A DNA stretch of 51,424 nt. Origin: Lama guanicoe. Its lineage: Eukaryota. Location: the NCBI GenBank assembly GCA_013239625.1, contig MU053860.1:62001-113424 (forward strand). Direction: 5' to 3'. Below the pieces are notes generated by a model, which worked only from the letters and a program-made list of their open reading frames with translations, did not search any database and was not told the DNA's origin. Made by a program: the position numbers and the translations under genes. Shown piece after piece: positions 2,459 through 49,781 of this stretch (position 1 is its first letter; every line of letters begins with the position of its first letter).

Positions 2459-2485
2459 CGGTACAAGAAGTTCTCATTGATCTAT
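2459..2485 (+). pseudogene. TRAPPC9: 27-nt microexon of the TRAPPC9-like copy (xVQEVLIDLx)
   Basis: cctgttctttcttccAG|CG GTA CAA GAA GTT CTC ATT GAT CTA T|GTacat. Exactly 27 nt, phase 1-1, matching the alternative GAQEVLIDPG segment of TRAPPC9. Confidence 0.85.
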
Positions 2486-5169
2486 GTACATGATCTATGT
2501 GCTTAGTTTCTTTGTTTTTTTTTTTAAGTGCTTGTTTCATTGTGGTGTGAATGAATATTTAAAATTTCTGGATTTTTATCTTTAGAACATGCTGATTTAT
2601 CAGAACTGTTAAAAATCTGATTGTTCTTTGGTCCTTGTTTGGTGGGGCTCCTATTGATTTCTGTTGTCTGTTAAAGAGGGATATTCTTCCTCTAGCCTGC
2701 AGATCATTAAGTGAATGGTTTGCAGTGAGGCTTTAAAATTCTTTGAATGCATTGAGCATGTTTGTGCAGTGAATTTTTAATTGACTCATAGTAATGACTT
2801 TGCTTTGACACTTTGGCTTTTCCTCCTGTCCACAAGAATTTGAAATCTCTGTTGCATTTTGTATACGTGTACTTCACAGGGGAAGAAATTTTGCTTTTTT
2901 ACAGAGATGGATTTTCCTATCCCCTCTGAATGTCTTCTGTAATTAATACAGAAAAAAATCTGTTATTGCTGTGCTTAATTATTTCATAAACTATTTTTTG
3001 GCTTGATCAGAAACAATGACAAAGATTGATAATAAAAAATATCAAAACCTTCCTTCCTTTGAAGAATAGAAATCAAGTGATCAGGCTCATGCATGCTTTG
3101 TGCCTGACACATTCTCATGTCATTGTGTATCATGATTTGGAGATGGAGTTGCTTCATATTTCTAGATTTTTGTTTGAACATTTTTGTTGAATTCTTTCTC
3201 CAGACTGATGTTTCCTGTTGGGTTTGTGGAAAGTGTAGAAGAAGGAAAACAAATGCTTTGTTTTGTTTTCAGGAGGCCTGAGTTGCTGATTAGAAAAGAG
3301 TTGAGGGTGGGCTGAGGAATAGAGTGACACTCCCTCTCCTCCCGGCTGAAATCGATGAACAATGAAATCAATTAGGTGTTTTGGTAGTTGACCAATAGAA
3401 TTCAGTGAGTGCAAACTGGCCCACTGGAAAGTACTGAATACACCTGCAGAGTTAGGTGCTTTACCAAGTAGAAGCAGCTTAGAGCAATCAGAAAAATCAA
3501 TCCTATGATGAGATATAAAAGAATATAGTATCTTTTATTTCTGAAAGTTTTCTACGTTAAGTTGTGTAGAGCTAAAATTAAGTTTCAAGCACCAGGAGTT
3601 AAGGGTGTGAGTGGTTCTGTGGGATCGTTATTCAGGTAGGTGTCTAGATCCTGCTAGAGTGGCTGAAGCTGTCAGGAAAAGACTAAGAGCCAAGATTTGT
3701 CATCCCAGGGTTTTCTCCATAACTGTTCCATGTGGAAGCCCATGATTGGGTTAACAAATTATAACAGACCCCAGCCGCCTGTCAACTTTAAGAAGAAAAA
3801 ACTGTGCTTAGTAACTGCTTTGCAAGCAGGGGCCTGTGCATCCTCACTCCTGTCTCCTTGTCTTAAAAAGCAGAGACAATGCTTTGCTTGCATAGTTGAG
3901 GTTTTAGATAGCACTCTGCTCAATGCAAAGCAAAGACCCAGGCCCTCAGCTATAAACGTTGGGCTTGTGTGCTGTTATACAGTTTATTATCCCCAAAACA
4001 ACAACCTGGCTGGTCTGGTGGTCTGCTTTGTAATAAACATATCTAAAGAATGTATCTTGTTCCCCTCACCCCATGACTTCCCTAAAGATACACTGAGCCT
4101 TTGTACTCATTGTGGATTCTACAATCTCTATCTCATTCTGCCTTTCCCCAAGTTCCTGCTTACTATCATACAACTGTTACTGACTTTTCCTTTGATTATA
4201 CACAATAAATATGAGAGCATTTAAGAGGCTCATGGAGTTGGCTCCCTACTCCCTCTAGCTCTGTTAACTTTTTCCACAGAGTCTTGAGTAATTCATTCCA
4301 TGTCGGTAAGACTTCTGCCAGCCAGAACTCACAGTTCCAGGTGAGAAGGATGCAGGCTTTATCTTTCCTACCAGAGGGAGAGAGAGTAGAGAATTGAGAT
4401 CTGCTCCCCCGTGGTCCCTTCCTGTCCCAGGGCCACTCCAGTTCACCTGCAGTCTTCTGGCCTCTGCTCACAGGGCCTCTGTCCCAGGACTGACTGCAGC
4501 CCTTTCTTCCCTTGTCAACATTTCCTTTGCCTTCGAGAAGTTGGCCTCTTCTTTGCAATTCAACCCTGGCAGATGTGATGGTGGTAAGCGTGCTGGTTGG
4601 CAGACCCTTGGGACTCCCAGGAGACATGCTGATTCTCCTGAGTCTCTCATTCAGGATTACAGAACTGTCGAGCACCGGAGGAAGCCCTTTCACGTGAGGC
4701 CAGCTCAGCATTACATCACTTTCATTTTATTTTTGAATTTTCAGTGGAGAAATTATTTGTAGCAAAGTGTTCCAGATTTTCAGCTGCCTGCTTTCCTCAC
4801 CACATTCTCATTGTTGGTTCTGGTGCTTGTTTTAAGAACCAAGTTTCTTCTCTGGTCATTTGTAGCAGCTGGGCTTGCCGAATCCTTGATCTGCATTTGA
4901 AGCAGAATGCTTCTTCATGATGTCAAACTGATTTCCCTTGTCATTTCTGAATATTTCGTGTATACTCAGCAACTGTTTCAAGTGAAATGCTCTTGTCCAA
5001 TTTCAGTTAACACACATTTGCTGATCTGCCGCTTTCATACAGAGGGCAGTTTCTTCTTCCTGTAATAAAAGTTAGCAATTTGCATTTACTATTGGAAGGT
5101 ACTGGCCCAAAGTACTTTTGTTCTTAACTGTTTTAATGCAACTCACTGAATAAAAGGTACTGCGGCTTT

Positions 5170-6175
5170 TACTGTATGCCACAAAATGTGCATCCCAGTC
5201 AATCTTAGAACATTTTCATCCCCCAAATAGGAAGCTCCGTACCCATAAGCAGTCATTCCCATCTTCCCCATCCTCCTCCAGCCCCAGGCAGCCACTCTTC
5301 TCTCTCTCTGGATTTGCCTGTGCTGGAGATTTCATGTAAATCCAGTCACTTCATGTAAATGGAACCATCTATTGTGACTGACTTCTTTCACACTGAGTAA
5401 CGTTTTCAATGTTTGTCCACATTTGTCCACATTGTGGCCTGTCTCAATACTCCTTGTTTTGGTATTGCTGAATAATATTCCACTGTATGGCTGGGTCCCT
5501 CTGTTTACCCATTTATCATGTGATAGACACTTGGGTTGTTTCTGCTTTTTGGCTGTGATGAATAATCGTGTCATAAACATTCCTGTAGGAGTTTTTATGG
5601 GGACATTTGCTTTCAGTTTTCTTACGTGTGTCCCCAGGAAGCAGAATTGCTGGGTCATTCAGAAACCAAATATTCAACTCTCTGAGGACCTGCCAGGCTG
5701 TTTTCCAAAGTGGCCACACTATATTACATCCCCACCAGCAACAGCTGTGAGCTCTGCTTCCTCTGTGTCCTCATTAGTGCTTGTTACTCTTTTTTTGATT
5801 ATAACCTATTGTAGTGAGTGTGAAGCGGTTTCTCCTAGTGGTTTTGACTTGGTTTCCTTTACAGCTAATGATATTGAACATCTTTTCATTGTGCCTATTG
5901 GACATTTCTACATTTTCCTTTAAAAATATCTTTTCAGATACTTTATTCATTTTTTAATTGAGTTGCCTTTTTATTGTTGAGTTGTTGGAGCTTTTTTTAT
6001 CTTGGAAACACAAATTCCTTATCAGATAAATGATTTGAAAAAATGTTCTCCTGTCTGTTGTTTTTTCACTTTCTGGATGGTGTCCTTTGAAGCAAAGTTT
6101 TAAATTTTGATGAACTCCAGTTTATCTCTGTTTTCTTTGTTTCTTGTGCTTTTGGGGTCATATTTAAGATATGAG
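5170..6175 (-). mobile_element. Old LINE-1 3' fragment (L1MA/L1MB-like)
   Basis: Minus-strand ORFs MWPLWKTAWQVLRELNI...DPAILLPG and ...LFITAKKQKQPKCLSHDKWVN are degenerate L1 ORF2 C-terminus, followed by 3'UTR-like sequence. Confidence 0.85.
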
Positions 6176-6229
6176 CTATTTTATTTAAACTTTTATATAT
6201 AAAATAACTCAATTCTTAGGACGGTTCTA

Positions 6230-8085: not shown

Positions 8086-10507
8086 TTTTACTTTTTTTTT
8101 TGCCTTTATACTGAGGACAAGTGTGTAAGGCACTGGGATAAGTAGTGTATTTGAGCCCCACCACTTGCTGCCACCATGGATGCTGCGCTCTTGCTTCACA
8201 CTCTGATCAATCTTGCACAAAATAGGACCTCAGTAACTCTCTCTTGAATGAATCATTATATAATTGTTGGATGATGCTTGAGAGTCCTTATGATGATTTT
8301 TTTTCCCAGACTTTCCCCACTTCGTAACTATGCCCTTTCCCTTCTTAAACTCCAGACTTTGTTTCAGCCTGCCTGTGGCATTGACTTTCCCTGTCGGTAG
8401 ACTCTTCCTTTCACTGGTTCACGATAATGTTTCATGTAGGCTGTGGATACTTGCTAGATGTCAAGAAAGAGCAAATCCATTGCATGCTAGTATTTTTAGA
8501 GTGTGGTAATATTTTATCGATTGAAATTAAATCAGGCTGACACCTGAGCTCTCCCATGAGCTCTTTTCACCTTCCTACAGGTGATACTGCTCTGGTTGCT
8601 GCCTGTACCCTTCCTCCAGCCTTGGTTTTGGAGTTGAGTAAGTCACCATCACTGGAGCCCTCTCTTTAAAAGATGAAGAGAACATTTGCTCCTTCTCCCA
8701 GTTAGGGGCTGGGATGAGATGAGGTACCAGATAAAAATGGAGCCCCACCTCATTCTGACCACCGCTCTTTCCATTCCTTTAACCAGGGGAAAATAGTACA
8801 ATACAACAGTATAAAGATTGACTATGAGCTAATGAGATAGACAAGACAACTGATTATTTATTAAATATCCTTTCATGCCAGAAACAAATGTATTATACAC
8901 ACAAAAAGCACATAAAGCATGGTAGTACTGTGGTTACAATCGTGGATCCGAGTTCAAGTCCTGCTCGGGAGTGACCAGTCCTGTGAGACGGAGAACTGGT
9001 AGGTGGGCTTAGCCTTTCCTGGACTTGTTTTCTGTCCTGCAGAGATGGGGCTCGCTTGGTGTCCCTCCCCCATAGAGGTGCTGTGGGGTGTAAACGACGT
9101 GCGTGGGCATCCCGAGCAAAGCTGCTCATTCCTCATAAGTGCAGGATAGCATAGCTTTTGCGATGATGGCTTTATGACAGCCCCGTGAAGACTCTCAGTA
9201 CTCCAAAGGGATGCCTTGTGGTTTGGAGATGGGATTCTCACTTCAGTAAATACCCAAGTATTTTGTTATTGGGCCTTGCTGATTTGAAACTATTCTTTAC
9301 AAAATAAATATTGTAGATTTTTTTTTCAAGCATGCATGATGTTTTCTTTTAATATTTATAGTTCTACCCTCTCATCTCTTGTGTGCTTTTTCATGGAATG
9401 TAGGAAACAATCCTAAGCCACCTGCCTCTTCACACTTCTCCGTGGTGGTTTTCCTCCCTGACTGGAAGAGGGTTTTGCATAGGAAATTTACTTTGTTTCC
9501 CTTTTCTTGGAGTCTCTCTGTCTGCCCATCTCTCACCTGTCCATCTGTCTATTTATCTACCCACTCATTCTTCTGACTTGTTCCAAGAAGCATTTCAGGC
9601 AGCTTACAGAATAACAGATACCAAATAAGCAGGTGAGAAAATGGAGCCAAGTTCAGACAGTGAGGCTAGGAGAGGAGCCTGAGTGAGGGTTGCAGGGTGA
9701 GACAAACGCGTCTGATCTGAGACTTATAAGACCGACAGCAATTGTGTCCCTGAGGCTCCCAGCAGACACAGGGAAACGGTTTGTGGGAGATGCTCACTAG
9801 TTGTGAAATAAATAAGTGGCTTAGGAGAAGCCCAGCCTTTCCAGCTACTAAGACTTAGGAGAATATTTTGAGTGTCTTCCAAAATCAGGGTATTTCATCG
9901 TTTCTTTTGTCACAGTTCTATGTGTAGTTGGTTACATTCTATACCTGGAAATTTCTCCAAAACTCCTTCTCATGTGAGTCTCATGGCTCGGGAATGGGGT
10001 GGTTCTGCTCATTGATGGGGGTTGCCCAGAAACAGAAAATGACAGCCTCAAAGGGGACTGGGGCTTTTCAGTCATGTTTTGTCAGTGCTGTTGACTTCAG
10101 AAAATGTTTTCACTGTTTCTCTCCATCTGAGGTGGCAGCGTGCTCTCTTACCAGCATCAGGAACTCAGGCCCACGGGATGGTGGGGGTGACTGCACTTCT
10201 GTCAAGACAGCTGAACTGGTCACTGCAGGCGTGGTGCTTTCACGTACTGCATTTCATGTTCTTTAATAGAAGGTTTCAATAGGAAGTTAATTAACTGAGT
10301 TAATTAACATTTAATAAATATGATGCTTTGTTGAAAAGACAGTTATAGGCACATTATAAGCTGTGAAGGATTTAAAAACGGTATCATTACTGAAATTTCA
10401 GTAGGGAAGATACACAGTTTATCTTATTTGTGCCTTTCTTTTAAAGTAAAAAGGAAACAAGACAGAATAGGCAAAAGATGCTTTCTGTTCTTCCTGTCTG
10501 TTTGCAG

Positions 10508-10628
10508 GCGCCCTCACCTCCAGTGGCATCAATCCAGACACCAGCACTGACACTGGCCGAGCTCAGAACTGCCTCAGCCCTGAAGACACAGCTGACAAAT
10601 AGAAGGGGGCCATGCCCTGTTACAGCAG
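10508..10628 (+). pseudogene. TRAPPC9: TRAPPC9-like exon (G)[38 protein letters not shown] with premature stop
   Basis: Polypyrimidine tract and tttgcAG at 10506-10507. About 27/40 aa match the recalled [40 protein letters not shown]. Tyr codon is TAG at 10600-10602. GT at 10629-10630 lies 1 nt earlier than expected. Confidence 0.92.
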
Positions 10629-11251: not shown

Positions 11252-11254
<3 letters not shown>

Positions 11255-12480: not shown

Positions 12481-13114
12481 TTCTGTAACTTTTTAATGTC
12501 TAAGATGGAGATGATAATAGTAATTGTTATAGTGAGGGTAAGTTGAGTTAATATGAGCAAAGTGTTGTATTTACTGTTATTACTTTTTAATATTAACATC
12601 ACTATCTGTAATTTTTCTTGTGGTCATTATGACAGGAATAGAATTTGTTCTTTCCAGGTGATTCTCTGATTTTCCCAGGACAATTATTGAATTCATATTT
12701 TTCTCTTTGATTTGAAATCCCTCGTGTACAAAATACTTATGTAAACTAGAGCCTCTTTTTGAGCTCATGGTACTTTTTTTTTTCTTTTTTTAAAATTTTT
12801 TATTCATTTATAATCATTTTACACTGTTGTGTCAAATTCCAGTGTTCAGCAAAATTTTTCAGTCATTCATGGACATATACACACTCATTGTCACATTTTT
12901 TTCTCTGTGAGTTATCATAATACTTTGTGAATATTTCCCTGTGCTATACAGTGTAATCTTGTTTATCTATTCTACAGTTTTGAAGTCCGAGTCTATCCCT
13001 TCCCACCCTCCACCCCCCTGGTAACCACAAGTCTGTATTCTCTGTCTGTGAGTCTATTTCTGTCCTGTATTTATGCTTTGTTTTTGTTTGTTTGTTTGTT
13101 TTTGTTTTTGTTTT

Positions 13115-16100
13115 TTAGATTACACATATGAGCGATCTCATATGGTATTTTTCTTTCTCTTTCTGGCTTACTTCACTTAGAATGACATTATCTAGGAGCA
13201 TCCATGTTGCTGCAAATGGCATTATGTTGTCGGTTTTTATGGCTGAATAGTATTCCATTGTATAAATATACCAACTCTTCTTTATCCAGTCACCTGTTGA
13301 TGGACATTTAGGCTGTTTCCATGTCTTGGCTATTGTAAATAGTGCTGCTATGAACATTGGGGTGCAGGTGTCATCCTGAAGTAGATTTCCTTCTGGATAC
13401 AAGCCCAGGAGTGGGATTCCTGGGTCATATGGTAAGTCTATTCCTAGTCTTTTGAGGAATCTCCACACTGTTTTCCATAGTGGCTGCACCAAACTGCATT
13501 CCCACCAGCAGTGTAGGAGGGTTCCCCTTTCTCCACAGCCTCTCCAGCATTTGTCATTTTTGGATTTTTGAATGACGGCCATTCTGACTGGTGTGAGGTG
13601 ATACCTCATTGTAGTTTTGATTTGCATTTCTCTGATAATTAGTGATATTGAACATTTTTTCATGTGCTTTTTGATCATTTGTATGTCTTCCTTGGAGAAT
13701 TGCTTGTTTAGGTCTTCTGCCCATTTTTGGATTGGGTTGTTTATTTTTTTCTTATTGAGTCGTATGAGCTGCTTATATATTTTGGAGATCAAGCCTTTGT
13801 CGGTTTCACTTGCAAAAATTTTCTCCCATTCCGTAGGTTTTCTTCTTGTTTTATTTCTGGTTTCCTTTGCTCTGCAGAAGCTTGTAAGTTTCATTAGGTC
13901 CCATTTGTTTATTCTTGCTTTTATTTCTTCTAGGAGAAAATTTTTGAAATGTATGTCAGATAATGTTTTGCCTATGTTTTCCTCTAGGAGGTTTATTGTA
14001 TCTTGTCTTATGTTTAAGTCTTTAATCCATTTTGAGTTGATTTTTGTATATGGTGTAAGGGTGTGTTCTAGCTTCATTGTTTTACATGCTGCTGTCCAGT
14101 TTTCCCAACACCATTTGCTGAAGAGACTGTCTTTATTCCATTGTATATTCTTGCCTCCTTTGTCGAAGATGAGTTGACCAAAAGTTTGTGGGTTCATTTC
14201 TGGGCTCTCTATTCTGTTCCATTGGTCTATATGTCTGTTTTGGTACCAATACCATGCTGTCTTGATGACTGTAGCTCTATAGTATTGTCTGAAGTCTGGG
14301 AGAGTTATTCCTCCAGCCTCTTTCTTTCTCTTCAGTAATGCTTTAGCAATTCTAGGTCTTTGATGGTTCCATATAAATTTTATTATGATTTGTTCTAGTT
14401 CTGTGAAATATGTCCTGGGTAATTGGATAGGGATTGCATTAAATCTGTAGATTGCCTTGGGCAGTGTGACCATTTTAACAATATTGATTCTTCCAATCCA
14501 AGAGCATGGAATATCTTTCCATTTTTTAAAGTCTTCTTTAATTTCCTTCATCAATGGTTTATAGTTTTCTGTGTATAATTCTTTCGCCTCCTTGGTTAGA
14601 TTTATTCCCAGATATTTTATTACTTTGGGTGCTATTTTAAAGGGGATTGTTTCTTTACTTTCTTTTTCTGTTGATTTATCGTTAGTGTAAAGAAAGGCAA
14701 CTGATTTTTGAACATTAATTTTGTAACCTGCTACCTTGCTGAATTCTTCGATCAGCTCTAGTAGCTTTTTTGTGGACCTTTTAGGGTTTTCTATATATAG
14801 TAACATGTCGTCAGCATATAATGACACTTTTACCTCTTCTTTTCCAATTTGGATCCCTTTTATTTCTTTCTCTTGCCTGATTGCTGTGGCTAGGACTTCC
14901 AGGACTATATTGAATAGGAGTGGTGATAGTGGGCATCCTTGTCTTGTCCCAGATTTTAGTGGGAAGCTTTTGAGTTTTTCACCGTTGAGAACTATGCTGG
15001 CTATAGGTTTGTCATATATAGCTTTTATTATGTTGAGATATGTTCCCTCTATACCCACTTTGGCGAGAGTTTTTATCATAAATGGGTGTTGAATTTTATC
15101 AAATGCTTTTTCTGCATCGATTGAGATGATCATGTGGTTTTTGTCCTTTCTCTTGTTGATGTGATGTATTACATTGATTGATTTGCGTATGTTGAACCAG
15201 CCTTGTGTCCCTGGGATGAACCCCACTTGGTCATGATGTATAATCTTTTTTATGTGTTGTTGGATTCTATTTGCTAAAATTTTGGTGAGGATTTTGGCGT
15301 CTATGTTCATCAGTGATATTGGCCTATAATTCTCTTTTTTTGTAGTGTCTTTGCCTGGTTTTGGTATCAGGGTGATGGTGGCTTCATAGAATGAGTTTGG
15401 GAGTATTCCCTCCTTTTCAATCGTCTGGAAGAGTTTGAGAAGGACTGGTATGAGTTCTTCTTTGTATGTTTGGTAGAATTCCCCGGTGAAGCCATCCGGT
15501 CCTGGACTTTTATTTGTAGGGAGGTTTTTAATTGCTATTTCTATTTCCTTTCTAGTGATCGGATTGTTCAAGTGTTCAGTTTCTTCTTGATTCAGTTTTG
15601 GTGGACAGTATGTTTCCAGAAACTTGTCCATCTCCTCTAGGTTATCCAGTTTGGTTCCATATAGTTTTTCATAATATTCTCGTATGATATTCTGTATTTC
15701 TATTTTGTTTGTTGTAATTTCTCCATTTTCCTTTCTTATTTTGCTAATTTGTGCTCTCTCTTTTTTCTTCTTTGTGAGTTTGACCAGAGGTTTGTCGATT
15801 TTATTTACTTTTTTAAAAACCAGCTTTTGGTTTGGTTGATTTTTTCTATGGTCTTGTTAATCTCTATTGTATTTAATTCCTCTCTGATCTTTATTATTTC
15901 CTTCCTTCTGCTGCTTTTTGGGGCTTTTTGTTCTTCTTTTTCTAATTGATTCAGGTGGTGGGTTAACTTGTTTATTTGAGATTGTTCTTCTTTTTTGAGG
16001 AAGGCCTGTATCGCTATAAACTTCCCTCTTAGCACTGCCTTTGCTGTGTCCCATAGGTTTTGAGTGGTTGTGCTTTCATTATCATTTGTCTCAAGGTATT

Positions 16101-16909
16101 TTTTAATTTCAGCTTTGATTTCCTCATTGATCCAGTTTTTTCAATAACATATTGTTTAATCTCCATGCTTTTCTTTTTTTCTCCTTTGTTTCTCTGTTGT
16201 TGATTTCCAGTTTCATGGCATTGTGGTCAGTAAAGATGCTTGAGATAATTTCTATCTTCTTAAAATTTTTGAGGTCTCTTTTGTGCCCAAGTACATGATC
16301 GATCCTGGAAAATGTTCCATGTGCACTTGAAAAGAATGTATTTCCTATTTTTGGGGGGTGTAATGCTCTGAAAATATCCACCAAATCTAGTTTTTCTATT
16401 GTACTATTTAATTTCTCTGTTGCCTTGTTTATTTTCTGTCTGGAAGATCTGTCTAGTGATGTTAATGCAGTGTTAAAATCTCCAACTATGATTGTATTCC
16501 CATCAATATCCCCCTTAATCTCTGTTAGTAATTCTTGTATGTACTTATGTGCTCCTATATTGGGTGCATATATATTAACGAGTGAAATATCTTCATTTTG
16601 TATCACTCCTTTAATCATTATAAAATGTCCCTCTTTATCTTTCTTTATGGCCTTTGTTTTAAAGTCTATTTTGTCTGAAATCAATACTGCAATACCTGCT
16701 TTTTTGGCTTTTCCATTTGCATGGAATAACCTTTTCCATCCTTTCAATCTCAACCTATATGTGTCCTTCTCCCTAAAGTGTGTCTCTTGTATGCACTATA
16801 TTGAAGATTCTTGCTTTATTATCCAGTCTGCCACTCAATGTCTTTTGACTGGAGCATTTAGTCCATTAACATTTACAGTAATTACTGATAGATGTGTGTT
16901 TATTGCCAT
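13115..16909 (-). pseudogene. L1 ORF2p (endonuclease, reverse transcriptase, C-terminal Cys-rich domain), disrupted in its 5' part
   Basis: Starts MAINTHLSVITVNVNGLNAPVKRH* at 16909, with two stops early in the EN domain and frameshifts near 16130 and 15810. The 838-aa open stretch 15631-13115 contains QGCPLSP and YADD RT motifs and [18 protein letters not shown]. Confidence 0.95.
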
Positions 16910-17308
16910 TTTGAACTTATCTTTGCAGTTGAATTTGTATATCCTCCTTGTTCATTTCTTCTTTCTTTTGTGGTTTGGTAGTTTTCCTTTGTATTATGAT
17001 GGATTTTATTTAACCTTTGTGAAACCCTTGTAAATTTTTTACTTGTGTTTGCCTTTTTTGGAAATATATTAACCCATTACTATAACTGTTTTTATTAAAC
17101 TGATAGTAACGTGATCTCAAACCCATCCTACTGTTAAAAAAATTTTAAAAAGAAAGAAAAAGTATTCTATATTTCCCTGCCTCCCTCTCCCACTCTCAGT
17201 GATCTGTATGTCTTTTTATGATTTCATGTTTTGTTTATTTGTAATTCATGAGTTATCACCTTTCCAGTTGTGAGTTTCTCATTTCTGTAGCCTCTGCTGC
17301 TTTTCTAT

Positions 17309-18211
17309 TTACAATAGCCCTTTCAATATTTCTTTTAACATTGGCTTATTGTTGCTAAACTCCTGCAGCTTTTTTTTGTCTGTGAAACTCTTTATTTCTC
17401 CTTCTGTCCTAGAGGATAGCCTTGCTGAATAAAGTATCCTAGGCTGCATCATTTTTTCATTCAGGGCTTTGAATATATCTTGCCACTCCCTTCTGGCCTG
17501 TAGTGTTTGTGTAGAGAAATCATCTGAGAGCCTTATGGGGGTTCCCTTGTAACTTACTCTTTGCTTTTCTCTTGCTGCCTTTAGAATCATTTCTTTATCC
17601 TTGAATCTGGCCATCTTGATTATGATATATCTCTGGGTGGGTCTATTTGGTTTCTTCCTATTTGGGACCCTCTGAGCTTCCTTTACTTGGGTATCTGATT
17701 CCTTCTGTAAGTTTGGGAAGTTTTCAGTCATGATTTCTTCAAAAACCTTTTCTATCCATTTTGATCCTTCTTCCCCTTCTGGGAACCCTATTATGTGAAG
17801 ATTGGGATGCTTTATATTATCCCATAAGTCCCTTATGCTATTTTCATTATTTTTTATTGGCTTATCTTGTAGTTCTTCTGAATGAGTGCTTTCTATTGCC
17901 CTGTCTTCTAGATCACTAATTTGTTCCTCTGCATTATCTAGTCGGCTTTGTACAGCTATTAGTTCATTCCTCATCTCTGTCAATGAGTTTACCCATTCTA
18001 CTTGGCTCTTCTATATAGCTTCAATTTCATTTTAGACATATTTTATGTCTCTAAACACTATCTCTTTTAATTCCTTCAGCAATTTGATCACTCCTTTTTT
18101 GAAATCTTGATCTAGTAGGCTATCGATGTCTATTTCATTGATCTTTCTTTCAGAGGATTTCTCTTGTTCTTTTAATTGGGAAAGGTTTCTCTGCTTCTTC
18201 ATCTTGCTCAT
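17309..18211 (-). pseudogene. L1 ORF1p with two premature stops
   Basis: ATG at 18211 (MSKMKKQRNLSQLKEQEKS...) is in frame with the 224-aa ORF containing ENFPNL, ILKAAREK and ARREW. TAA at 18034-18032 and TAG at 18013-18011. Confidence 0.93.
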
Positions 18212-18649
18212 ACCTCTCTGGCACTGTGGTTTATGGAGTATCAGTTGTCTATTTTGGATCTTAAGGTTTTTATCTATCTAATGCCTATTTAGGAATAGAA
18301 CTTAGGAAAAAAGAGAAAAAAATAGAAAGAATTTTAAAAGAAGGGAAAAAGAGGGTTTGAAAACAGTGTATAACGAATAATAGAAGAGCGAGTTGAAGCA
18401 GAGTATTAATCGGGTTGAGACGTCCTTTTAAAACCTTAAAAAAATAAAGTTGGGGGGGAGATGAATAGATGTATTTGAAACCTGTGTCTATTCAATAACA
18501 GGACATCAAAACCCAAGAGAAATAGAATTGAGTTAAGAAGTAAAAATTAGGTGAGTAATAGAAAATAGAACAGGTAAAAACAGGTTTTAAAAAAAATGGT
18601 TGTCGGTGTTCTCCTGTAGTCCGTGTGCTTTTAATGTGAAGTCTTTCTG

Positions 18650-19866
18650 TCTTCGTCCTATTTTGGAAGCTCAGCTTGTTGTTTTCAGAGGCCCTCTGTT
18701 GGCGCCCTCTTCTGTGCTGCTCCCAGCACCTGTTGGCAAGCTGATCGCGCCTCCTCCTAACACGGGGTCAGGTGCAGCTCTCCTCTGCTGTGGGCGGGTG
18801 GGTCACTGCCCCTCCAGATGCTGCAGTCAGATGTTGCAGACTGACCAGGAAGGAGGGCGGGTCGTGCCCCATCCCAGCACCTCGGTCAGGGGCTGTGTTC
18901 CTGCCCGAAAGGCGGGGGCCGCTCTCCCTCTTCCTGCGCTGCCGGTAGCTCCGCTGCTCTGTGTGGCTGCGCGTTCCGCCCTGGTCGGCACTCCACAGGT
19001 TGGCTCGGGGAAGTCCCAGGGACAGCCTTGTCCCTGCTCCGAGCCAAAACCCAGCTTCTTGTTTGTCTTTGTGGAGCAAGTTTTCTGAGGGACCAGGATG
19101 GAAGGATCCTATCTGCCCCGGGCTGTAGTCCCGTCTCAGTCTGGCCCTTGAGACTGCTAAACCCGTCAGTGCAGATGCAGGTTTCACCCCCGGCCCTGCC
19201 TGGGTGCTCAGCACCATAGAATATGGCGGCTGTTCCTGGGCCCCGCCTCTCTTCCCCTGAAAAGTTTCCGCGGGTTTTCAGAGATGGGGGTATGCACCCT
19301 TCCCCGAGAGCACATCAACCTTGCTGTTTTATGGAGGGCCCAGGTTGTTCTGTCCTGTACACCCACAGCCACAGCGCCCAGCCCCTTGCAGTCCCCTGGA
19401 GCTGCCTCCATGCAGCTGCCCCCATCCTCCGCCCAGCTTGTGCAGCCTGGCCCTGCCGGCCACTGCCGGCCCGTGTCTCAGGCTGGGTGTCGGGGGGATG
19501 CTCTGTGCCCATTTAACTTAGTTCTGTCAGACAAGGGCTGCTCTGTACAGATCCGAGCCTTGGAGGCTCCCCCTCCGTCCTGCTGACCTCTCAGTTGGAA
19601 AGGGGAGACCCAGCATGCGAGCGCCAGTCCTCCTTTGCCGCTCCATCCCCGTGGGACCCGTCCCACCCTGCTTTGCCTTTTGTTCTTTCTTTTTTCATTT
19701 TCTTCTACCAGATTTTTGGCGTCTTGATCTTTTGAAGAGGGTGAAGTTCTGTCCGAATTCCGCAGGTGCTCTGGTTGGCTGAGTGGGTCTGTAGATGTGG
19801 GTCTTGGTGTATTTGTGGGAGAGGGTGACTTACGAGTGTCCTTCTACTCCGCCATTTTCTCTGTCT
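18650..19866 (-). promoter_or_regulatory. L1 5'UTR internal promoter, GC/CpG-rich, with YY1-like sites
   Basis: Minus-strand aaaatggcgg at 19858-19849, just inside the 5' end where L1 YY1 sites sit. A second aatatggcggc lies on the + strand at 19220-19230. Many CpGs. Confidence 0.75.
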
Positions 19867-20799
19867 CTCATGGTTCTTTTCTATCAATCTTCCTTTCTTA
19901 TTCCAGCACAATATCTTACATATTGTAAAAATTATTTAATATTTGACAGTGTGATTTGTTTTTGATTCTTTTCTTGCATCCCAAATTTTCTTGGCCATTA
20001 TTATCACTTTATTATTCCTGAAGAATTCAAAAATATTTTGCTCAAGTTGAAAAAACATCAGATAAGAATTTTGATGGGATTTTTTAGTAAGTTTTGAATT
20101 ATATTTAGGAGAACTTATATCTTTAAAAACTGCTTTCCTCCATGCAATATTTTGATGTCTCTACATTCACACCTCTTAGTTTACCATTCAGTACAGTCCT
20201 GTAGTTTTCTTAATTTAGAACATGGGCATAATTTTTGAGTTTATTCCAGATTATTGTTTATGTTTTTGTTAATTTTGTGAGAATTATTTGCTATTGTATT
20301 TTATGACTGCTTAAAACTGACACCTAGAAAGGCAGATTTGATTTGTAAATACTCACTTTGTAACTTGTCATTTAAATTTGGAAATATCAAGTACTTGTTC
20401 CAGAATCCTTTCAATTCTGTTTTTAAAAATATGTTTCCAATATTATCAAAATGGTCATAACTAAGCAGTACAGGTGGGGAGAGAGAAGGAGAGAGGTAGT
20501 GTGGCTTATGTACAAACTGTGAGCAGTTCCATGGCTGCCTTTAGCCTGGAGAAGCCCCACAAAAACCCAGGTTAATCCAGGGGTGGCTTTTTATGCACTT
20601 GAAAGCCAGCTTTCCTGCCTTTATTGTGAAGCCTGGTGGGCGTGGCAGGTAGATGATCAAGGTCCGATGGAGGTCATTGGCTGCACAGTGTGCTGTGTCT
20701 GTGAGAACTGGAGGCCACTGCCATGGGAAATGCTTGGTGCCAGGAACACTGCAGGGAAGCTGGGAAGCCTGTGTGTTAAGGATTTTCCAGTCTTGGAAG

Positions 20800-21010
20800 T
20801 GGGAAGTTCAGACTCTACATTCAGATCTGAGTTTGAATTCATCCTCTCTTTTTTACTGGTCCGTTGACTTTTGTCAGGTTATATACCCTCTTTGAACTCC
20901 TGTTTTCTTGTCTCTCAAAACAGGAGAATTACAGCCTGCTGCTAGAGTGTTTGTTCAGGGTAAATGATTTGTGTCTATAAGATGCCACGTACAGTCACAA
21001 GCTCAGTGAG
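20800..21010 (+). mobile_element. MIR fragment
   Basis: cagatctgagtttgaattcatcctct...gacttttgtcaggttatataccctctttgaactcctgttttcttgtctctcaaaacagga. Confidence 0.6.
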
Positions 21011-22049
21011 AAATAGGCTGCCATTTCTTCTGCAACTCAGTGCTCAACAAGACATCAGGGGAAGCCAGTTCCTAATTTGTATGTGAAGCAAGTAGGAACA
21101 AAATTAATGTTTTGCCTTTCTCTAGCAGTACACTTACTCCTTTGCTTCATTTACCTCTTTCCTCCTTTTCTTTCACTTCCTCCACCAAAAGAGACTAAGA
21201 CTCTCTCAGAACACTAGATTCAAATAACTTTAAAGGTTGGCTCATCCACTTGAAATGACAGTGACATAAAAAAAATCTGTTCAATTCCCAGACTTGACTG
21301 TATTTGATTTACACACACACAAACACACACATACACGTCAGGTTACCTCTCACTTGCTGAGGGAGAAGGACCACTTTTTCTGAGTTTTCATTCACTGAGC
21401 ATGAGAGCGAAGTCTCTTAATCAGACTTTCTCCTGGCTCCATGCATGGTTTTTTATTGGATTTCTCTGTGGCCATAGAATTATTCTCCTATTAGAAGAGA
21501 GGAATTGGAGACATAGAGATTCTGCTGAGACATCGGAGTCTTCATATTTGAGTTGGAAATGTCTTAAGACAGCATACAGTCATAACTTTTTATGGGTGAG
21601 AATCCATGATAGTGTAACGTGGCAAGAACCTGGGTCTTCTGCCATCGTGTCCATGCAGGTGAAGAGGCAGCTGGGTGTGGGATGGCAGGGATCCTTCTTG
21701 CTTGAGTTCCAGGGTCTTGATAGTTTTCATTACTCAGCTGCCTTTAGTTTATGTCCATGTGGCCTCTCATGGGAAGGTCACTCTGTCCTGATAAATTGAG
21801 TTTCTTATCAGCAAAAAGCTCTGGATCCACTCACATTTCCCAGAGTTTTTCTGCTGACCTGCTGACACTTTATGTAAATGAAACCTAAGAAAACTACTGG
21901 ATATAAAATCCTTATTTTTATCATTTGCCCTCTAGGTCCATAAGAATGGGGTGCTGTCTCAGGCTGTCTAAGGCTAGATCTGAACAAAGATAGGGTGATA
22001 GGCTGTGCTGCTGTACCATCACAAGTGGAATGGAATTTCCACCTTGGTT

Positions 22050-33054: not shown

Positions 33055-34793
33055 TGGAAAGATATTCCATGCTCTTGGATTGGAAGAATCAATATTGTTA
33101 AAATGGTCACACTGCCCAAGGCAATCTACAGATTTAATGCAATCCCTATCCAATTACCCAGGACATATTTCACAGAACTAGAACAAATCATAATAAAATT
33201 TATATGGAACCATCAAAGACCTAGAATTGCTAAAGCATTACTGAAGAGAAAGAAAGAGGCTGGAGGAATAACTCTCCCAGACTTCAGACAATACTATAGA
33301 GCTACAGTCATCAAGACAGCATGGTATTGGTACCAAAACAGACATATAGACCAATGGAACAGAATAGAGAGCCCAGAAATGAACCCACAAACTTTTGGTC
33401 AACTCATCTTCGACAAAGGAGGCAAGAATATACAATGGAATAAAGACAGTCTCTTCAGCAAATGGTGTTGGGAAAACTGGACAGCAGCATGTAAAACAAT
33501 GAAGCTAGAACACACCCTTACACCATATACAAAAATCAACTCAAAATGGATTAAAGACTTAAACATAAGACAAGATACAATAAACCTCCTAGAGGAAAAC
33601 ATAGGCAAAACATTATCTGACATACATTTCAAAAATTTTCTCCTAGAAGAAATAAAAGCAAGAATAAACAAATGGGACCTAATGAAACTTACAAGCTTCT
33701 GCAGAGCAAAGGAAACCAGAAATAAAACAAGAAGAAAACCTACGGAATGGGAGAAAATTTTTGCAAGTGAAACCGACAAAGGCTTGATCTCCAAAATATA
33801 TAAGCAGCTCATACGACTCAATAAGAAAAAAATAAACAACCCAATCCAAAAATGGGCAGAAGACCTAAACAAGCAATTCTCCAAGGAAGACATACAAATG
33901 ATCAAAAAGCACATGAAAAAATGTTCAATATCACTAATTATCAGAGAAATGCAAATCAAAACTACAATGAGGTATCACCTCACACCAGTCAGAATGGCCG
34001 TCATTCAAAAATCCAAAAATGACAAATGCTGGAGAGGCTGTGGAGAAAGGGGAACCCTCCTACACTGCTGGTGGGAATGCAGTTTGGTGCAGCCACTATG
34101 GAAAACAGTGTGGAGATTCCTCAAAAGACTAGGAATAGACTTACCATATGACCCAGGAATCCCACTCCTGGGCTTGTACCCAGAAGGAAATCTACTTCAG
34201 GATGACACCTGCACCCCAATGTTCATAGCAGCACTATTTACAATAGCCAAAACATGGAAACAACCTAAATGTCCATCAACAGGTGACTGGATAAAGAAGA
34301 TGTGGTATATTTATACAATGGAATACTACTCAGCCATAAAAACCGACAACATAATGCCATTTGCAGCAACATGGATGCTCCTAGAGAATGTCATTCTAAG
34401 TGAAGTAAGCCAGAAAGAGAAAGAAAAATACCATATGAGATCGCTCATATGTGGAATCTAAAAAACAAAAACAAACAAACAAACAAAAACAAAGCATAAA
34501 TACAGGACAGAAATGGACTCATGGACAGAGAATACAGACTTGTGGTTACCGGGGGGGGGCGGGGTAGAGGGTGGGAAGGGATAGACTGGGATTTCAAAAT
34601 TGTAGAACAGATAAACAAGATTACACTGTATAGCACAGGGAAATATACACAAAATGTTATGATAAATCACAGAGAAAAAAATGTGACAATGAGTGTGTAT
34701 ATGTCCATGTATGACTGAAAAATTGTACTGAACACTGGAATTTGACACAACACTGTAAAATGATTATGAATCAATAAAAATGTAAAAAAAAAA
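33055..34793 (+). mobile_element. 5'-truncated LINE-1 (~1.74 kb) nested in the ERV
   Basis: Open ORF2 C-terminal frame 33103-34461, 3'UTR, AATAAA and poly(A). 14-bp TSD atttatccatttgg at 33044-33057 and 34794-34807, with 3-nt TGG microhomology at the 5' junction. Confidence 0.97.
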
Positions 34794-38925: not shown

Positions 38926-39550
38926 TGATAGAAGAAAAAAAAAAACCTGAGACATGAGGTCTGAGTCCCAGTCTTTGATTGAGCCCCTGGGATGTGCCCC
39001 ACCAGATGTGGGTCCTTGGCTTCATGCAGAAAAGAATTCAAGAGCAAGCCACTGTTGAATATAAGTATATTTATTCAGAGAGATACATTGAAAGGCAAGA
39101 GAAAGGCCACAAGGTGTGGGGGTTGGATGCTCAGATTAAAAGTAGATGCACACTCCACAGACAGATTGTGGGCCTTCTCCGTAGAGGGAGAGAGAGCGGT
39201 GACCTCTTGGTGGCACTGGGTTGCTGGTTTTCATGGTCTTGGTGGTTTCATATGCTAATAAGTAGAAGGACCAGCCTAAGGGGAAGGGGCTGGGATTCCC
39301 AGGGAGTTGGCCATTTCCCACCCTTTGACATTTTGTGGCTAGACTTGGGACTGCCATGGTGCCTGGGGTTGTATTATTCACCATGTTACTATTACAATGG
39401 GTGTATAATGAAGCTCAGGATCTGCTTTAAGTTAAATCTCTTCATCCTGAGCCTCAAGGCCTATTGGGGGTTGAATCCTTCACCATTTTGATGTGAATTG
39501 CTGTGGCCTTCTTTGAATGTCTGTGCTCTGACCCCTTCCATCCTGTCTCA
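38926..39550 (-). mobile_element. Solo LTR, ERV1 class (~620 bp)
   Basis: gatgtgggtccttggcttcatgcagaaaagaattcaagagcaagcc...tttatt...catatgctaat (octamer)...cctgtctca is typical reverse-oriented ERV1 LTR sequence. The TSD is not clear, so the left end is approximate. Confidence 0.75.
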
Positions 39551-39749: not shown

Positions 39750-39954
39750 ATTTTTCTTTTTTTTTATGTATTTAATCTAAATTTACTATCAGGTTTTTTA
39801 GGAAAGAAATTTCTCTTTTTGTTTCCTTTTCGGTTCTTTTGCAGGGGGTAGGTAATTAGGTGTATTTATCTGTTAGTGGAGGCCCTGGGGCTTGAACCCA
39901 TGACCTCGTGCATGCTAAGCACAAGCTCTACCACTGAGCTCTTCCACCCACCCC
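39750..39954 (-). mobile_element. Vic-1-type tRNA-Ala SINE with extended 3' tail
   Basis: Reverse complement gctcagtggtagagcttgtgcttagcatgcacgaggtcatgggttcaagccccagggcctcca...cctaattacctaccccc. Candidate TSD catctttttct at 39739-39749 and from ~39957. Confidence 0.85.
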
Positions 39955-40086
39955 ATCATCTTTTTCTTTTTGCTTTAGCTGCCAAGAATCTTAACGACCT
40001 CGTGCATGCTAAGCACAAGCTCTACCACTGAGCTCTTCCACCCCCCCATCATCTTTTTCTTTTTGCTTTAGCTGCCAAGAATCTTA
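39902..40086. repeat. Tandem duplication of ~92 bp (SINE head plus unique flank)
   Basis: 39902-39993 and 39996-40086 are identical apart from a 1-nt indel. Confidence 0.95.
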
Positions 40087-42509: not shown

Positions 42510-44100
42510 TGATAATTTTGTTTATCCATTCATTGATGAATGGATATTGTTTGGCTACTCTGAATGATACTGCTATGAATATTGATGTGCAAGTTTTTGT
42601 GAGAATATGTTTTCATTCTCTTGGCTGTACAGTTGGCCCACTATATCTGTAGTTTCCACTTCATAGATACAAATGGCTGATTGTAAAGGGACTTGAACAT
42701 CCTTGGATTATGGTATCCAGGGTGGGGTGTTCCTGAAACCAACCCTCCGAGGATACTGAGGGATGACTCTATATGTAGAAGTGGAATTGCTGAGCCATAT
42801 GATAACTCTAACCTTTTGAGGAAACACCAGACTTTTCCAAAGAAGCTGCACCATTGTCTCTTTCCACTGGCTGCACCTGAGGGTTCCCATTTCTCTGCCT
42901 CCTGAAAGACACTTTTTATTGTCCATGTTTTGATTATAACCATCCTAGTGGGTGTAAAATGAGATCTCATTTTGATTTAGATTTGGCTAGTGATGCTGAG
43001 CGTCTTTTCATATGCTTATTGGCAATATGTGTATCTTTTTAAATCCTTGGCAAATTTAAAAATTGGGTCGATTTTCTTGTATTGTTCAATTGTAAACATT
43101 TGTTATATATCCTAGATACTAGTCTCTTAAACGATACATGCTTTGCAAATTTTTTCTCCGATTCTGCAGATTGTCATTTCAATTTACTTTTTGTAAATGT
43201 TAAAACAATGTCTTTATATGGGAGATAATTAGATTTATTGATTTATTTTTTTTTGCCAAGCACACAATCTATCACTTGACCTACCCCCTTCCCCTGTCAT
43301 TTCACTTTCTTGATGATGTCCTTTGTAACAAAAAGATTTTAATTTTTATGAAGTCCAGTTTATCTGTTATTTCTTCTACTAATTGTGCTCTTGGTATTGT
43401 ATCTAGGAAACCACAGCCTATCCTCAGACCACATAGATTTATACTATGTCTTCTTTTAGAAAGTTTATAGGTTTAGTTTTTACATTTCTGTCTGTGATAC
43501 ATTTTGAATTAATTTTTATTTGTTATATACAATGGGGGGTTCAGATTCCAGATTCATTCTTTTGCCTCCAGATACACAGGTGTCCCTGCATCATTTGTTG
43601 AATAGACTATTTTTTTCACAGGAGTGTTGTTGGCACCCTTGTGGTAAACTGACTGTAAATGTAAGTTATTTCCCCCTGAATTTTTATTTTGTCTCATAGA
43701 TTTATGTATCCAAACTTATGCCAGGACAATACTGACTTGAGTACTATAGCTTTGAAGTAATATTTAAAGGGAGTCCTCCAACTTTGTTCTACTTTTTCTA
43801 GATTATTTTGGCTGTCCTGGGCCCCTTGAAATTCCATATGAATTTTGGGATCAGTTTTTCAATTTTTCCAAAGAAGTCAACTGGAATTTTGATAGGGATT
43901 CCATTGACCTGGTAGATCACTTTGGGGAGTTTTAACATTTTTAACAATATTGCCTACCATTCCATAAACATGGGATGTCTTCCATATATGAAGATCTTTG
44001 AAATTTTTTTCAGTAATACTTCAAAGTGTTCAATGTACATATCTTGTAAATTTTTGTTAAATGTTTCTCTCACTTTATTTTTAATGCTGTTGTAAATGGA
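42510..44100 (-). mobile_element. Ancient L1 (L1MB-like) ORF2 3' region; its 3'UTR part lies at ~40930-41045
   Basis: ORF MRSHFTPTRMVIIKT... and continuous degenerate L1 ORF2 motifs up to ~44100. Confidence 0.8.
42630..42769 (-). mobile_element. MER2-like TcMar-Tigger MITE, internally deleted
   Basis: TIRs cagttggcccactatatc and gatactgagggatgactc, flanked by TA. Reverse complement matches the MER2 ends (ggatgttcaagtccctt). Interrupts the host L1. Confidence 0.85.
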
Positions 44101-45560: not shown

Positions 45561-48500
45561 ACCTGGTAGGACAGGTGTGGGTGGTGGGACTCAGTGACTG
45601 AGGAAATCTGGGCCCTGAAGGAGGGGTCCAGTCACATCTGTGAGTGATGGGCCTGAGCTGGGAGGGAAAGGGAGACCTTTCCCCCAGACCAGGGGCCCTG
45701 AGCAGGACGACTATGGGAGGAACATCGTGAAGTCAGCTCTGTGCAGGGAGAGTTTGAGGTGCCCTTGACACACCTAAGTGCAGTGTCACAAGCTCACAGA
45801 GGAGGTCTGGGCCCAGGCTGTGCATTTTCCTATAATCTCAATCCCTGAGGACTCTGAGGAATTGATCACTGAACGTGAAGACATACTTTAAGGACAAGTG
45901 AATAGTAGTATCATCTCTGTCATCAAAGCTCACGTCTCTTTATTCATCACTCACTTTGATAATTTGGTACCTACAGAGCTCACTTCACCGCCCTCCCCTG
46001 GGCTCAGGCTCCACAGTAAAGACCTGGTGAGCCTCCCTCTTTTCCAGAAGACACATTTAGCTGGTATCCTTCTATACCTCGTCAGACTTAGAATTTTAGT
46101 TTGTTGTTTTAATTCTATTTTCTGTTGGCCATCTCCTGACAGGAGAGAATTTTTTCCTCATGGTCATGTTTCAATTAGCTGTTAATGAGAATTGCTGATC
46201 TGATCCATAGTTTATGCATTTTATTAACTTTGTAGAGTACTTATCATTTTTCTGTCTTGCCCTTTAATTTTGTTTGCCCCTTGAATGTTCTATCCTATTT
46301 GAGGCCTTATTTTTTTTAATTTAAAAATGTCTGTAAGCAGTTAAGAAAACAAAAGAAAAGAAAAAATGCACATGATTCCTAAATTTAGAAAATATCTGGT
46401 GTGTTTTCTGTCTCAGCAATGGAGGGTTCTAGAAACTCGTGAAAACCTTCATTACACAAGTTCCTTAAAATGCTGAATAAGAAATGAAACCTTCCTTCCT
46501 CATTTTTCAAGCTGCACAGCTAATTGTCAAGAAAGTGAGGGGAAATCCTCAGAAGAAAAGACAACCCAGAAAGCAGGGATTCTGGGAGGTAAGGGAGCCT
46601 TAGAAATCCTGAGGTGCCAGTAAGTTCCTGAACTGAGTTTCAGTTGCCCTGTCAGGAGAGCCCCAGGCCTCTCACACTGGGGGTTGGATGGCTGATCCTA
46701 TGTAAGGCCAAACACATCCTGAGAGACCTGCTTTACTAAAGGGTGAGTTAGAAAGAAAAAAAAAATTCCCCAAGGCAAGGAAGTAAGGAAATTCAATTTT
46801 ACTGGAAGAGGGGAAAAATAACAAATCCAAAGTAAGAATTTAGTTTAAAGCTGTTCTGGCATGAGAGTGACCACAAACCCCTGGCCGAAAAGCACAGCTC
46901 TTCCTGGAATGAGAAGTTGTGTTTGGAATGAATCAGTGAACAGCCATACCGAAAAAGACCTCCAGAGTCTTGTGGATCAAGATACTGGACCCAAACACCT
47001 CTATTCCAGGGTCTCATTTAAATAACCAGGAAGGTTTTAATGGAAAGAAGCCATAATCATAGTTCTGTTTATTGACATTACTATATGCTAGGATTTCAGA
47101 GGTGACTATGGAGTTGTCTCCTCTTTTATGGACCTTAGTTTCTGTTTTGCATATGCACTGACATAGTTGGGGAACTTGGTGAAGGGAGGTGTTAGTCTAT
47201 TGCAATTAGCCAGGAGAGGAGATTACTAAAACAGTGAAGGGTGGGTGACATTTTTAGCTGAGGACAGTCTTGTTTAGTTGGCTTTTAATTACAGGCTCGA
47301 AGAGTTGTCACTGGAGGGAATTGATCTTACGGAGAATAGACTTAGCTCAGTTCTCTTCAGAATGGACAAGTGAAACTGGAGAAAGACAATCAAATCTGTG
47401 CAGACATTTAAGTCCACATTAATGTGCTCTATCCCTGAGCCAAAGATACGACAAGTAGGCAGCAATTCTTTAGGACAGAGGAGTGGTTTTTAAGATTCTT
47501 GAATAATGAATCCCAGGGAACCGGGGTGAACAGTTGTCAAACAGTCAGTTTGCACTTTGGACGGTATATCCACCAAGAGTATTGGCTGTTTATAGGTTTT
47601 CATTTCTCTTTAATACATGTCAGTTGCTGAGGACGTGGGCACAAGTGTTTGACACCTTGTCGAGGTGATTATGGGTACCTGCATAGGAACGCGGTCACAG
47701 CTGTGCTGCTTCATACATCTTGCTGCCCATCACGTTCCCCGGCTCTGTGATCACAGTAGAGTGGTTTCTTGTTGACCTGACCGTCTCCTCTGTGACATCA
47801 TAACCCACCAAGGACCAGAGCATATTAACTTGGCTTTGTTCTTTACCATCCTCCTCTTTGAATGATGATGACTGATAGTGGACTCAGTTTTGTTAGCAGA
47901 TGTTTTACAAGTAGGTCCCTCAGTACAAACTATGTAATCTCCGCTTTGTGATCTAGAGAAGAAAGTTACATTCATTCCAAATTGTTTTGATGCACTTATG
48001 TGTGAAATTGGTGTAAGATTGAACATGTAGTTCCTCTCTGAATAATCATGGCAAGAGAGGAATGTGGGTAGATATGGAATGTGCTTCCTGTACTTCAATG
48101 TATGGTCCCCTAATTTCACCCCAGCATTTTAAAGTCATCACTGGAGTGCTACCACCATACTGCCCCAAAGCATTCACCACTGCCTGTTCTTCAGACACTG
48201 TGACTTTCAAAGTTGGAGAAGGCTGCTGGCTGGTGAGGCATTCTCTGGCACATCTCTGGCTGACTGATGTGGGCTTAGCACCCAAGACTTGGAAGAGAGT
48301 AACTAACCACTATCACGTCAATTCCTTGAACAATCATGGAGGATTTTACACCTATGCTAGTGGCATACGTTATTTCATTTAGTTTTCCCAACAATCATAA
48401 TTAGATTTTATCCCCTGTATTAATAAGGAAACTGTCAAAGCGAGTGACGTGCAGACTTTGGACTGGAAATCGGGTCTTTCTGATTCCTGTCTCTGTTCCC

Positions 48501-49567
48501 TCCCCGGATCCTTCCAAAAGGAGACTCTTCCTCTGTCTTGAGTTTCCTGCTGATGTTACCACTCTGTTTGTTTCTAGGAGAGGAAAGCAAGTCTAAACTT
48601 ACTTTCCAGTTGGAAATGGAATGGAGAGTTGACGTTGGAAGCCAGGAGAGTCTGTCCTGTGATGAAGCAGTCTCTGAGCCACATCCACTGGGACGTCACA
48701 TCACTATCTGGGCCCCTTGCTCAGCCTGTGCACAGGTGACAGTGCAGATGTGCCGAGCACTCCTCCCGGACAGGACAGAGGTTTGGAAATGAGTTTGGGG
48801 ATTTGGTTTCATTTCATAGGTTCCTGAGGTTCTTGGCCTGGCACTTCGAGTGGGACCATTGCCTGTCCCACAGACTCATGTTCTGGGCCCGTGCATACCT
48901 GACGTTGCCTCAACCTGAGGCTCAGGGCCCGTGGTGATGAGGAGCATTTTAATCCAGGGTCTGCCAGCGGCTCTGACAGTTCTGAGCTGTGAGAGGTTGT
49001 CCAGGATGATAATAATTCCTCCCCGAGTTTCAGATTTCCTTGCCTGTGAGCCAGGGTAGTAATAGTTTCTGAGATGATTGTAATGATTCAATAAGGGGCT
49101 AAGCATGTGCGGGCAAGTAGCTGGTGCTTAAGGAGCAGAAGTCGCAGTCACTCTGTCAGCCTCTCACTGTGTGCTCTGTGCTTTGAGAGGTTGTGTGTTT
49201 GGTGAAAGTCCTGCACAATTCCTAGGGTCTATATGAACTGTTGTTCCTTTACTTTCCCTTGCTTTCCCTCTTTCCCTTGTCTGGGTCTCATGTGTAGGTA
49301 GCAGATTCCTCTGTTTCAGGGAATACGGGTCTTTCTAGTAAAAGGACAGGCTGAACGCAGAGAGTTGGGGCCCAGAGGGGGTCTGGAGACTCTGCACAGT
49401 GCTGCTTCCCTGCGTTTCTGCATCCGGTCCCGTCAGTGCACTAAGTCAACCTTCCTCTTCCTTCCTGTGTCATTGAGTGTCTGTTTTATGGGAAAACAAT
49501 TTTTACGTATCTTTTTTCAATGACATGTTTCTTTCAGATGCTTGTTGCTTTTCTCCCTGTGCTTCAG

Positions 49568-49781
49568 AGTTCCGAGGAGAGAATTCAGCAGTGCAGCATC
49601 CTCTCCGAGCTCAATGAGTTGATTGGCTTCCACTGCAAGTCCGCCTTCTTCAAGCGGGTGGCCCCCTTACAGCACACAGCCCCCGGCATCCTGAAGCCTG
49701 GCGGGAAGGCCTGCTACCTACTACTTCTGCAGAAGCTTCCTGGCTACAATCTGTCGCTGGATCTGCAGGACGTCAGCAAAG
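49568..49781 (+). pseudogene. TRAPPC9: TRAPPC9-like exon [72 protein letters not shown] (frame open)
   Basis: Lies within ORF 49520..49816. About 49/73 aa match the recalled [75 protein letters not shown] at 49566-49567, GT at 49782-49783, one codon deleted. Confidence 0.93.

Follow-up and report, generated by a model that had tools for sequence, protein, structure and literature searches.

The window analysed here, a stretch of 51,424 nucleotides (nt) of the guanaco genome (Lama guanicoe; GenBank assembly GCA_013239625.1, contig MU053860.1, positions 62,001 to 113,424 of the forward strand), carries remnants of four exons of TRAPPC9, which encodes a subunit of TRAPPII also known as NIBP or Trs120. 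This guanaco copy is very probably a dead, diverged copy within a family of partial TRAPPC9 duplicates that extends across camelids. Taken alone the copy is an ordinary duplicated pseudogene, and its family is already visible in RefSeq. The family is the more interesting of the two: it is an apparently old, camelid-wide, multi-chromosome duplicon, we found no paper describing it, and the idea that its common stop codon reverted is its one testable surprise.

Exon structure and homology of the guanaco copy

The four TRAPPC9 exon remnants occur in gene order, all on the plus strand; every one has AG before it and GT after it, and the introns between them measure 8,022, 13,876, and 24,936 nt. They lie exactly where the initial annotation had placed four collinear exons over 47 kb. 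The exon features of the guanaco copy are:

2459-2485, plus strand: TRAPPC9 microexon remnant, 27 nt, with AG/GT flanks, matching an insert of the orthologues
10508-10628, plus strand: TRAPPC9 exon remnant (residues ~287-327), 121 nt, one base short at the 3' end, located by tblastn
10600-10602, plus strand: in-frame TAG replacing a conserved Tyr, seen in the spliced-frame translation
24505-24631, plus strand: TRAPPC9 exon remnant (residues ~328-369) with compensating internal frameshifts, a marker of subfamily 'A', located by tblastn
49568-49781, plus strand: TRAPPC9 exon remnant (residues ~371-442), open, with one codon deleted, located by tblastn and with its acceptor confirmed by an RNA joint
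49782-49816, plus strand: intron read-through to a stop after the last exon, within the open reading frame (ORF) 49445-49816

When 12 vertebrate TRAPPC9 proteins were used as tblastn queries, the last exon aligned at 67-71% amino-acid identity and E ~1e-22, a significant TRAPPC9 alignment of the kind on which the initial annotation had made its claim depend. Exon 10508-10628 aligned at 61-68% (E 1e-9 to 1e-11), and exon 24505-24631, matched by 11 of the 12 proteins, at 45-48% (E ~0.006). Over the four exons together amino-acid identity is 60% (98/163 residues), slightly lower than the two-thirds estimated at first. In the microexon, 6 of 8 residues agree with the 8-residue insert of orthologues P0309 and P0019. 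Its score of 25 is the highest among 398 AG..GT 27-mers (runner-up 13) and was reached by none of 60 shuffles. The microexon is an alternative exon of the TRAPPC9 long isoform, presumably exon 5 in human TRAPPC9 numbering.

Orthologous TRAPPC9 is strongly conserved, and within this region the best-scoring amniote matches are 93-100% identical to the rodent sequence used as query. The guanaco copy shares with the TRAPPII subunit (Pfam PF08626) the order, phases, and splice sites of the exons and, across 163 positions, 60% of the residues, but differs from it in having a premature stop, frameshifts, and substitutions of a neutral type, and in belonging to a many-copy family that extends no further than residue 451 of 1147. 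A functional TRAPPC9 was rejected on the identity of 60%, where more than 90% was the threshold, on the stop codon, and on the lack of an open full-length frame. A retrocopy, or processed pseudogene, was rejected because introns are present. With homology to an intron-containing functional gene and introns of 8-25 kb kept, the copy is a duplicated (unprocessed) pseudogene, and its introns, old repeats, and real lesions bear out the proposal of an old, decayed DNA-level duplicate. Pfam and PDB searches of the window's frames returned no match, which is uninformative as Pfam also missed all five family models tried.

A dispersed family in camelids

Thirteen of the 20 best matches of the last exon are short camelid gene models with 71-83% identity, higher than the 68% reached by true TRAPPC9. 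All 41 members of ten clusters of such models are camelid (35 alpaca, 5 Bactrian, and 1 wild camel). A search of 1.84 billion representatives added 25 further sequences judged by eye to be of the family type; the clusters of nine of these hold 28 members, again all camelid (19 alpaca, 6 Bactrian, and 3 dromedary). No non-camelid family member occurs among the named cluster members, 16 of the 25 further sequences being unnamed. Family models thus come from alpaca and all three Camelus species, and they are dispersed and many-copy, lying on 25 alpaca contigs (14 of them over 20 Mb) and six Camelus contigs (4 Bactrian, 1 dromedary, and 1 wild camel). RefSeq labels them 'TRAPPC9-like' or uncharacterized at dozens of loci. 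What was first taken for a hidden, one-off paralogue is therefore one of a large family, labelled in RefSeq and holding only the 5' part of the gene.

In a 30-row tree of the last exon, from which P0020 and P0366 were excluded because they are frameshifted or do not stay in frame over that segment, one side of a 100/100 branch consists of 20 family rows, the guanaco copy among them. Members have derived residues and indels in common and form one clade apart from the orthologues, as expected of a duplicon family. Camelid loci annotated as TRAPPC9-like or uncharacterized (for example XP_072793450.1, XP_074215186.1, XP_064347236.1, and XP_032331512.1) belong to the same family and share with the guanaco copy derived residues, indels, new exons, and the read-through C-terminus. 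They differ from it in that over the last exon the guanaco copy is 76-84% identical to those compared models that stay in frame and identical to none, and the guanaco copy keeps its stop.

Not one of 88 family models aligns beyond TRAPPC9 residue 451 of 1147, which indicates a duplicated unit limited to the gene's 5' part; exon 49568-49781 is the last TRAPPC9 exon in any of them. Family models also match intron sequence of the window at 9.4, 10.1, 22.8, 43.5, 48.0, and 48.6 kb, so that introns too are common to the family. Exon 10508-10628 reaches ~90% identity to alpaca models, exon 24505-24631 is 70-84% identical to alpaca and Bactrian models with the same shifted peptide, and the read-through C-terminus at 49782-49816 is common to many alpaca models, for example P0004, P0050, and P0363. 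Some models (P0002, P0398, P0404) contain one exon twice or return to the first coding exon after a later one, an arrangement that suggests tandem units and transcripts crossing them.

Two DNA runs yielded 1,337 and 838 contigs on 2 kb of the window, spread over identity bands from 80 to 99+%. Such a spread suggests many diverged copies; the contig counts and the summed depth on these 2 kb are not a copy number. Bases private to the window and missing from the DNA contigs were not read as absence of the locus.

Lesions and the probably ancestral stop

Exons of 121, 127, and 214 nt stand where orthologue residue counts predict 122, 126, and 217, and the indels read by eye are -1, -2, +4, and -1, plus one in-frame codon deletion. 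Because the frameshifts cancel, the TAG at 10600 is the sole in-frame stop across the four exons. The nonsense codon and frameshifts of the initial annotation were both found, and together they disable the copy as a pseudogene.

Across 41 family models, five end exactly at the position of this stop (one a named Bactrian model), 35 read W, and one reads L, a W majority that is biased by RefSeq annotation favouring open frames. The 28 named W-reading models are all from alpaca. Two further family models read Q, and the variation among W, Q, L, and end of model at 10600-10602 can be followed in models P0005-P0049, P0378, P0438, P0442, and P0461. Codons for W, Q, and L can each be reached from TAG by a single change but from a Tyr codon only by two, which makes TAG the parsimonious ancestral state. 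Judged from these residues, TAG is probably ancestral to the family and appears to have been lost repeatedly among the annotated copies. A common stop with three one-step sense versions offers a clean test of a dead duplicate reborn as a gene family.

The shifted peptide of exon 24505-24631 is present in alpaca and Bactrian models, while other models of both genera are without it, which points to two subfamilies older than the split between Old and New World camelids. That split is placed at more than 11 million years in a study of alpaca (PMC13751797). On the evidence of the gene models, the lesions are old and not sequencing errors.

Mode of decay and age

Of 52 last-exon positions that do not vary across 290 full-length orthologues, 13 have changed, and the mean BLOSUM score of the changes in this exon is -0.43, compared with -0.49 for random point mutation and +0.55 for variation among orthologues. 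Substitutions on the family stem are likewise neutral-like (mean BLOSUM -0.35; 10/52 invariant sites changed). Divergence of the guanaco copy from paralogous contigs is 11.7% in exon pieces (93/798, 4 pieces) and 9.7% in intron pieces (518/5355, 25 pieces), values that rest on 32 of 2,389 contig pieces, with the 3 mixed exon/intron pieces left out. As proxy tests, the BLOSUM spectrum, the invariant sites, and an exon divergence not below that of introns suggest that exon decay was neutral. In simulation, an amino-acid identity of 68% corresponds to ~17% nucleotide change, with a wide range, and one of 80-85% to 7.5-10%. With mammalian rates, this suggests as a rough figure that the first duplication is tens of millions of years old.

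Base composition differs as well. Between 47900 and 49950, sites with A/T in the window and G/C in the contigs are ~2x as frequent as the reverse (97 vs 50 in run X1, P ~1e-3; same direction in 4/4 runs). The excess may reflect the decay of an orphan copy towards A/T, or else gene conversion biased to G/C among homogenised copies.

Transcription and new exons

Transcripts of the family use an exon derived from intron sequence of the window:

48578-48735, plus strand: intron-derived new exon used in family transcripts, matching RefSeq model P0001 and seen in an RNA joint

The GT..AG joint from 48735 to 49568 was found in both RNA runs and in neither of two DNA runs, and one RNA run also has a loose end at donor 49781 whose translation gives the C-terminus found in a Bactrian model. 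From the joint and the loose end it follows that the family is transcribed and spliced through new, intron-derived exons. Over 49568-49816 the RNA contigs carry the family base, and not that of the window, at 7/7 sites listed, with 215 further rows outside the list, and they are without the private bases of the guanaco copy, contigs being prone to drop rare variants. Transcription and splicing are established for the family, not for the guanaco copy.

Other intron stretches serve as exons in RefSeq family models, namely 43535-43663, ~48090-48230, 9383-9490, and 10073-10242. By the gene models, former intron appears to have been exonised repeatedly within the family. An exon of Bactrian models P0002, P0003, and P0024 matches 22842-22952 at 73%. 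We take the stretch around this match to be like a long terminal repeat (LTR), as a candidate only, with similar LTR-like pieces near 27850-28400 and 38980-39490.

Origin of the family and alternative explanations

The family probably arose in the camelid stem lineage, where a genomic segment with the front end of TRAPPC9, up to and including the 49.6-kb exon, would have been duplicated a single time together with its introns; the truncation is read from gene models, and the timing is inferred. Function would have been lost early, with the TAG, small indels, and neutral-type substitutions passing to descendants, in which they are seen at the protein level. Amplification to many chromosomes and in tandem would then have preceded the split of Old and New World camelids, in keeping with the present distribution, and ectopic recombination in repeat-rich regions is a possible route. 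Some copies are transcribed and spliced through new intron-derived exons, as seen for the family. The guanaco copy drifted ~10% from the bulk of the family, gained two young LINE-1 (long interspersed nuclear element 1, L1) insertions, and kept the stop, and most likely has no protein product.

Some observations weigh against this account. The frameshifts compensate one another, and most models keep the last exon open; annotation favours open frames, but past selection is possible. Invariant sites changed less often (13/52) than variable ones (8/17), a difference that is not significant (P=0.13), and the comparison of exon with intron divergence draws on the small share of contig pieces given above. 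No named full-length camelid TRAPPC9 was found among the best 120 of 965, the best 120 of 683, or 106 of 1,092 cluster members.

The most durable of the alternatives, which we nevertheless consider improbable, is a young or resurrected core-duplicon gene family, in which the guanaco copy is dead and a high-copy alpaca clade has regained its frame (stop to Trp) and makes a short protein under selection; the guanaco copy would then be a relic of the dead state. The 35 W-reading models, with all 28 named ones from alpaca, fit this idea, as do the one-base distance of W, Q, and L from TAG against two from a Tyr codon, the compensating frameshifts, and the spliced RNA with new exons in 2/2 RNA runs. 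However, RefSeq emits proteins only for open frames, so that W is selected by ascertainment. One cluster holds 13 near-identical products of 145-272 amino acids, but their near identity also fits recent amplification, and N-termini, frames, and exon use differ wildly among models. The neutral-like substitutions on the family stem and the lack of a Pfam match for 5/5 models also argue against a selected protein.

Primate core-duplicon families and pericentromeric duplicated pseudogenes, such as NPIP, NBPF, and TBC1D3, provide a comparison. They resemble the TRAPPC9 family in the lineage-specific, interspersed amplification of a 5' gene fragment that is transcribed with new exons, and at the family level the TRAPPC9 duplicates are indeed transcribed and spliced. 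In contrast to the primate families, the TRAPPC9 family gives no evidence of a selected protein, and the guanaco copy is disabled. A full camelid 'core duplicon', with early death by the TAG, spread over many chromosomes, exons of intronic origin, and a stop-reverted South American clade whose dozens of expressed copies encode a new short protein, seems to us unlikely.

Far less credible is a unitary loss, raised by the initial annotation as its less likely option, in which the guanaco copy would be the only, decayed TRAPPC9 of the lineage. The missing named full-length camelid gene speaks for it, but the members listed are a small share of what these crowded clusters contain. The family exists in many copies, which refutes the single copy expected of a unitary pseudogene; it is without the 3' 60% of the gene, and TRAPPC9 is 93-100% conserved over the region in the best-scoring amniote matches. 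Moreover, two records without a name, P0374 and P0500 of the same cluster, each have an intact exon that matches the cattle exon exactly, and the translated intron flanks of P0374 are the most window-like of 28 compared (11/21 upstream), with P0500 next. The exon and flanks of P0374 hint at an intact camelid gene.

An assembly artefact, with the stop and indels as sequencing errors in a normal TRAPPC9, is scarcely conceivable: no run contained more than 25% of sampled words of 20000-29900 and many window bases are missing from read contigs, but rare variants are lost from contigs when a family has many copies, both the shifted peptide and the stop position recur in alpaca and Bactrian camel assemblies made independently, and base accuracy is high, because the window's L1 has a frame of 913 open codons and matches a second copy at 99%.

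Related systems and consequences for camelid genetics

Repetitive, pseudogene-rich blocks with NEK10-, FMN2-, ATF5-, and ABHD17A-like pieces have been described in alpaca (PMC13751797). They resemble the TRAPPC9 family as fragmented, multi-copy gene pieces produced by duplication and decay in camelids. Unlike the TRAPPC9 family, which is multi-chromosomal and found in all three Camelus species, they are reported there as local and as missing from Camelus assemblies; TRAPP goes unmentioned in the portions of text and supplement searched. Literature searches found no paper describing a camelid TRAPPC9 duplicon family, with the VicPac4 genome paper, which may mention it, outside their coverage. 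TRAPPC9 does not appear in six supplement files of a camelid comparative-genomics paper (PMC12127551), and the family is not described in the parts covered of a copy-number variation preprint (10.1101/2025.08.28.672513) or of the VicPac3.1 paper (PMC6598621).

The family can mislead camelid genetics. Because TRAPPC9 and POFUT2 are unlinked in human, a dromedary association signal that names TRAPPC9 beside POFUT2 on chr14 plausibly falls on a family copy. In two dromedary genome-wide association studies TRAPPC9 is among the candidates named at about 31 Mb of chr14 (31.08-31.37), once beside POFUT2 (PMC10357240, PMC8027435). This 'TRAPPC9' may be a copy of the family, and the associated single-nucleotide polymorphisms may be paralogous variants.

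Repeats in the window

The two young L1 insertions are useful as tags for the guanaco copy:

12772-19866, minus strand: young, near full-length LINE-1, ~7.1 kb, with ORF1 truncated and ORF2 in three frames; identified from its ORFs and an RVT_1 match (E 4e-49), with a candidate 8-nt target-site duplication
33058-34793, plus strand: young 5'-truncated LINE-1 that matches the first L1 at 99% along 1,439 nt and has a candidate 14-nt target-site duplication

Once the first of these is subtracted, the intron that holds it measures ~6.8 kb, close to the ~8 kb of the corresponding human TRAPPC9 intron. Ancient repeats had also been noted in the introns, and this stands for old L1 remnants, which are 33-44% identical to the window's own ORF2. 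Positions 1-90 and ~49885-50085 resemble MIR and MER58 and are candidates for these repeats. At 39902-40086 lies a tandem duplication of 93-94 nt with a tail like that of a short interspersed nuclear element.

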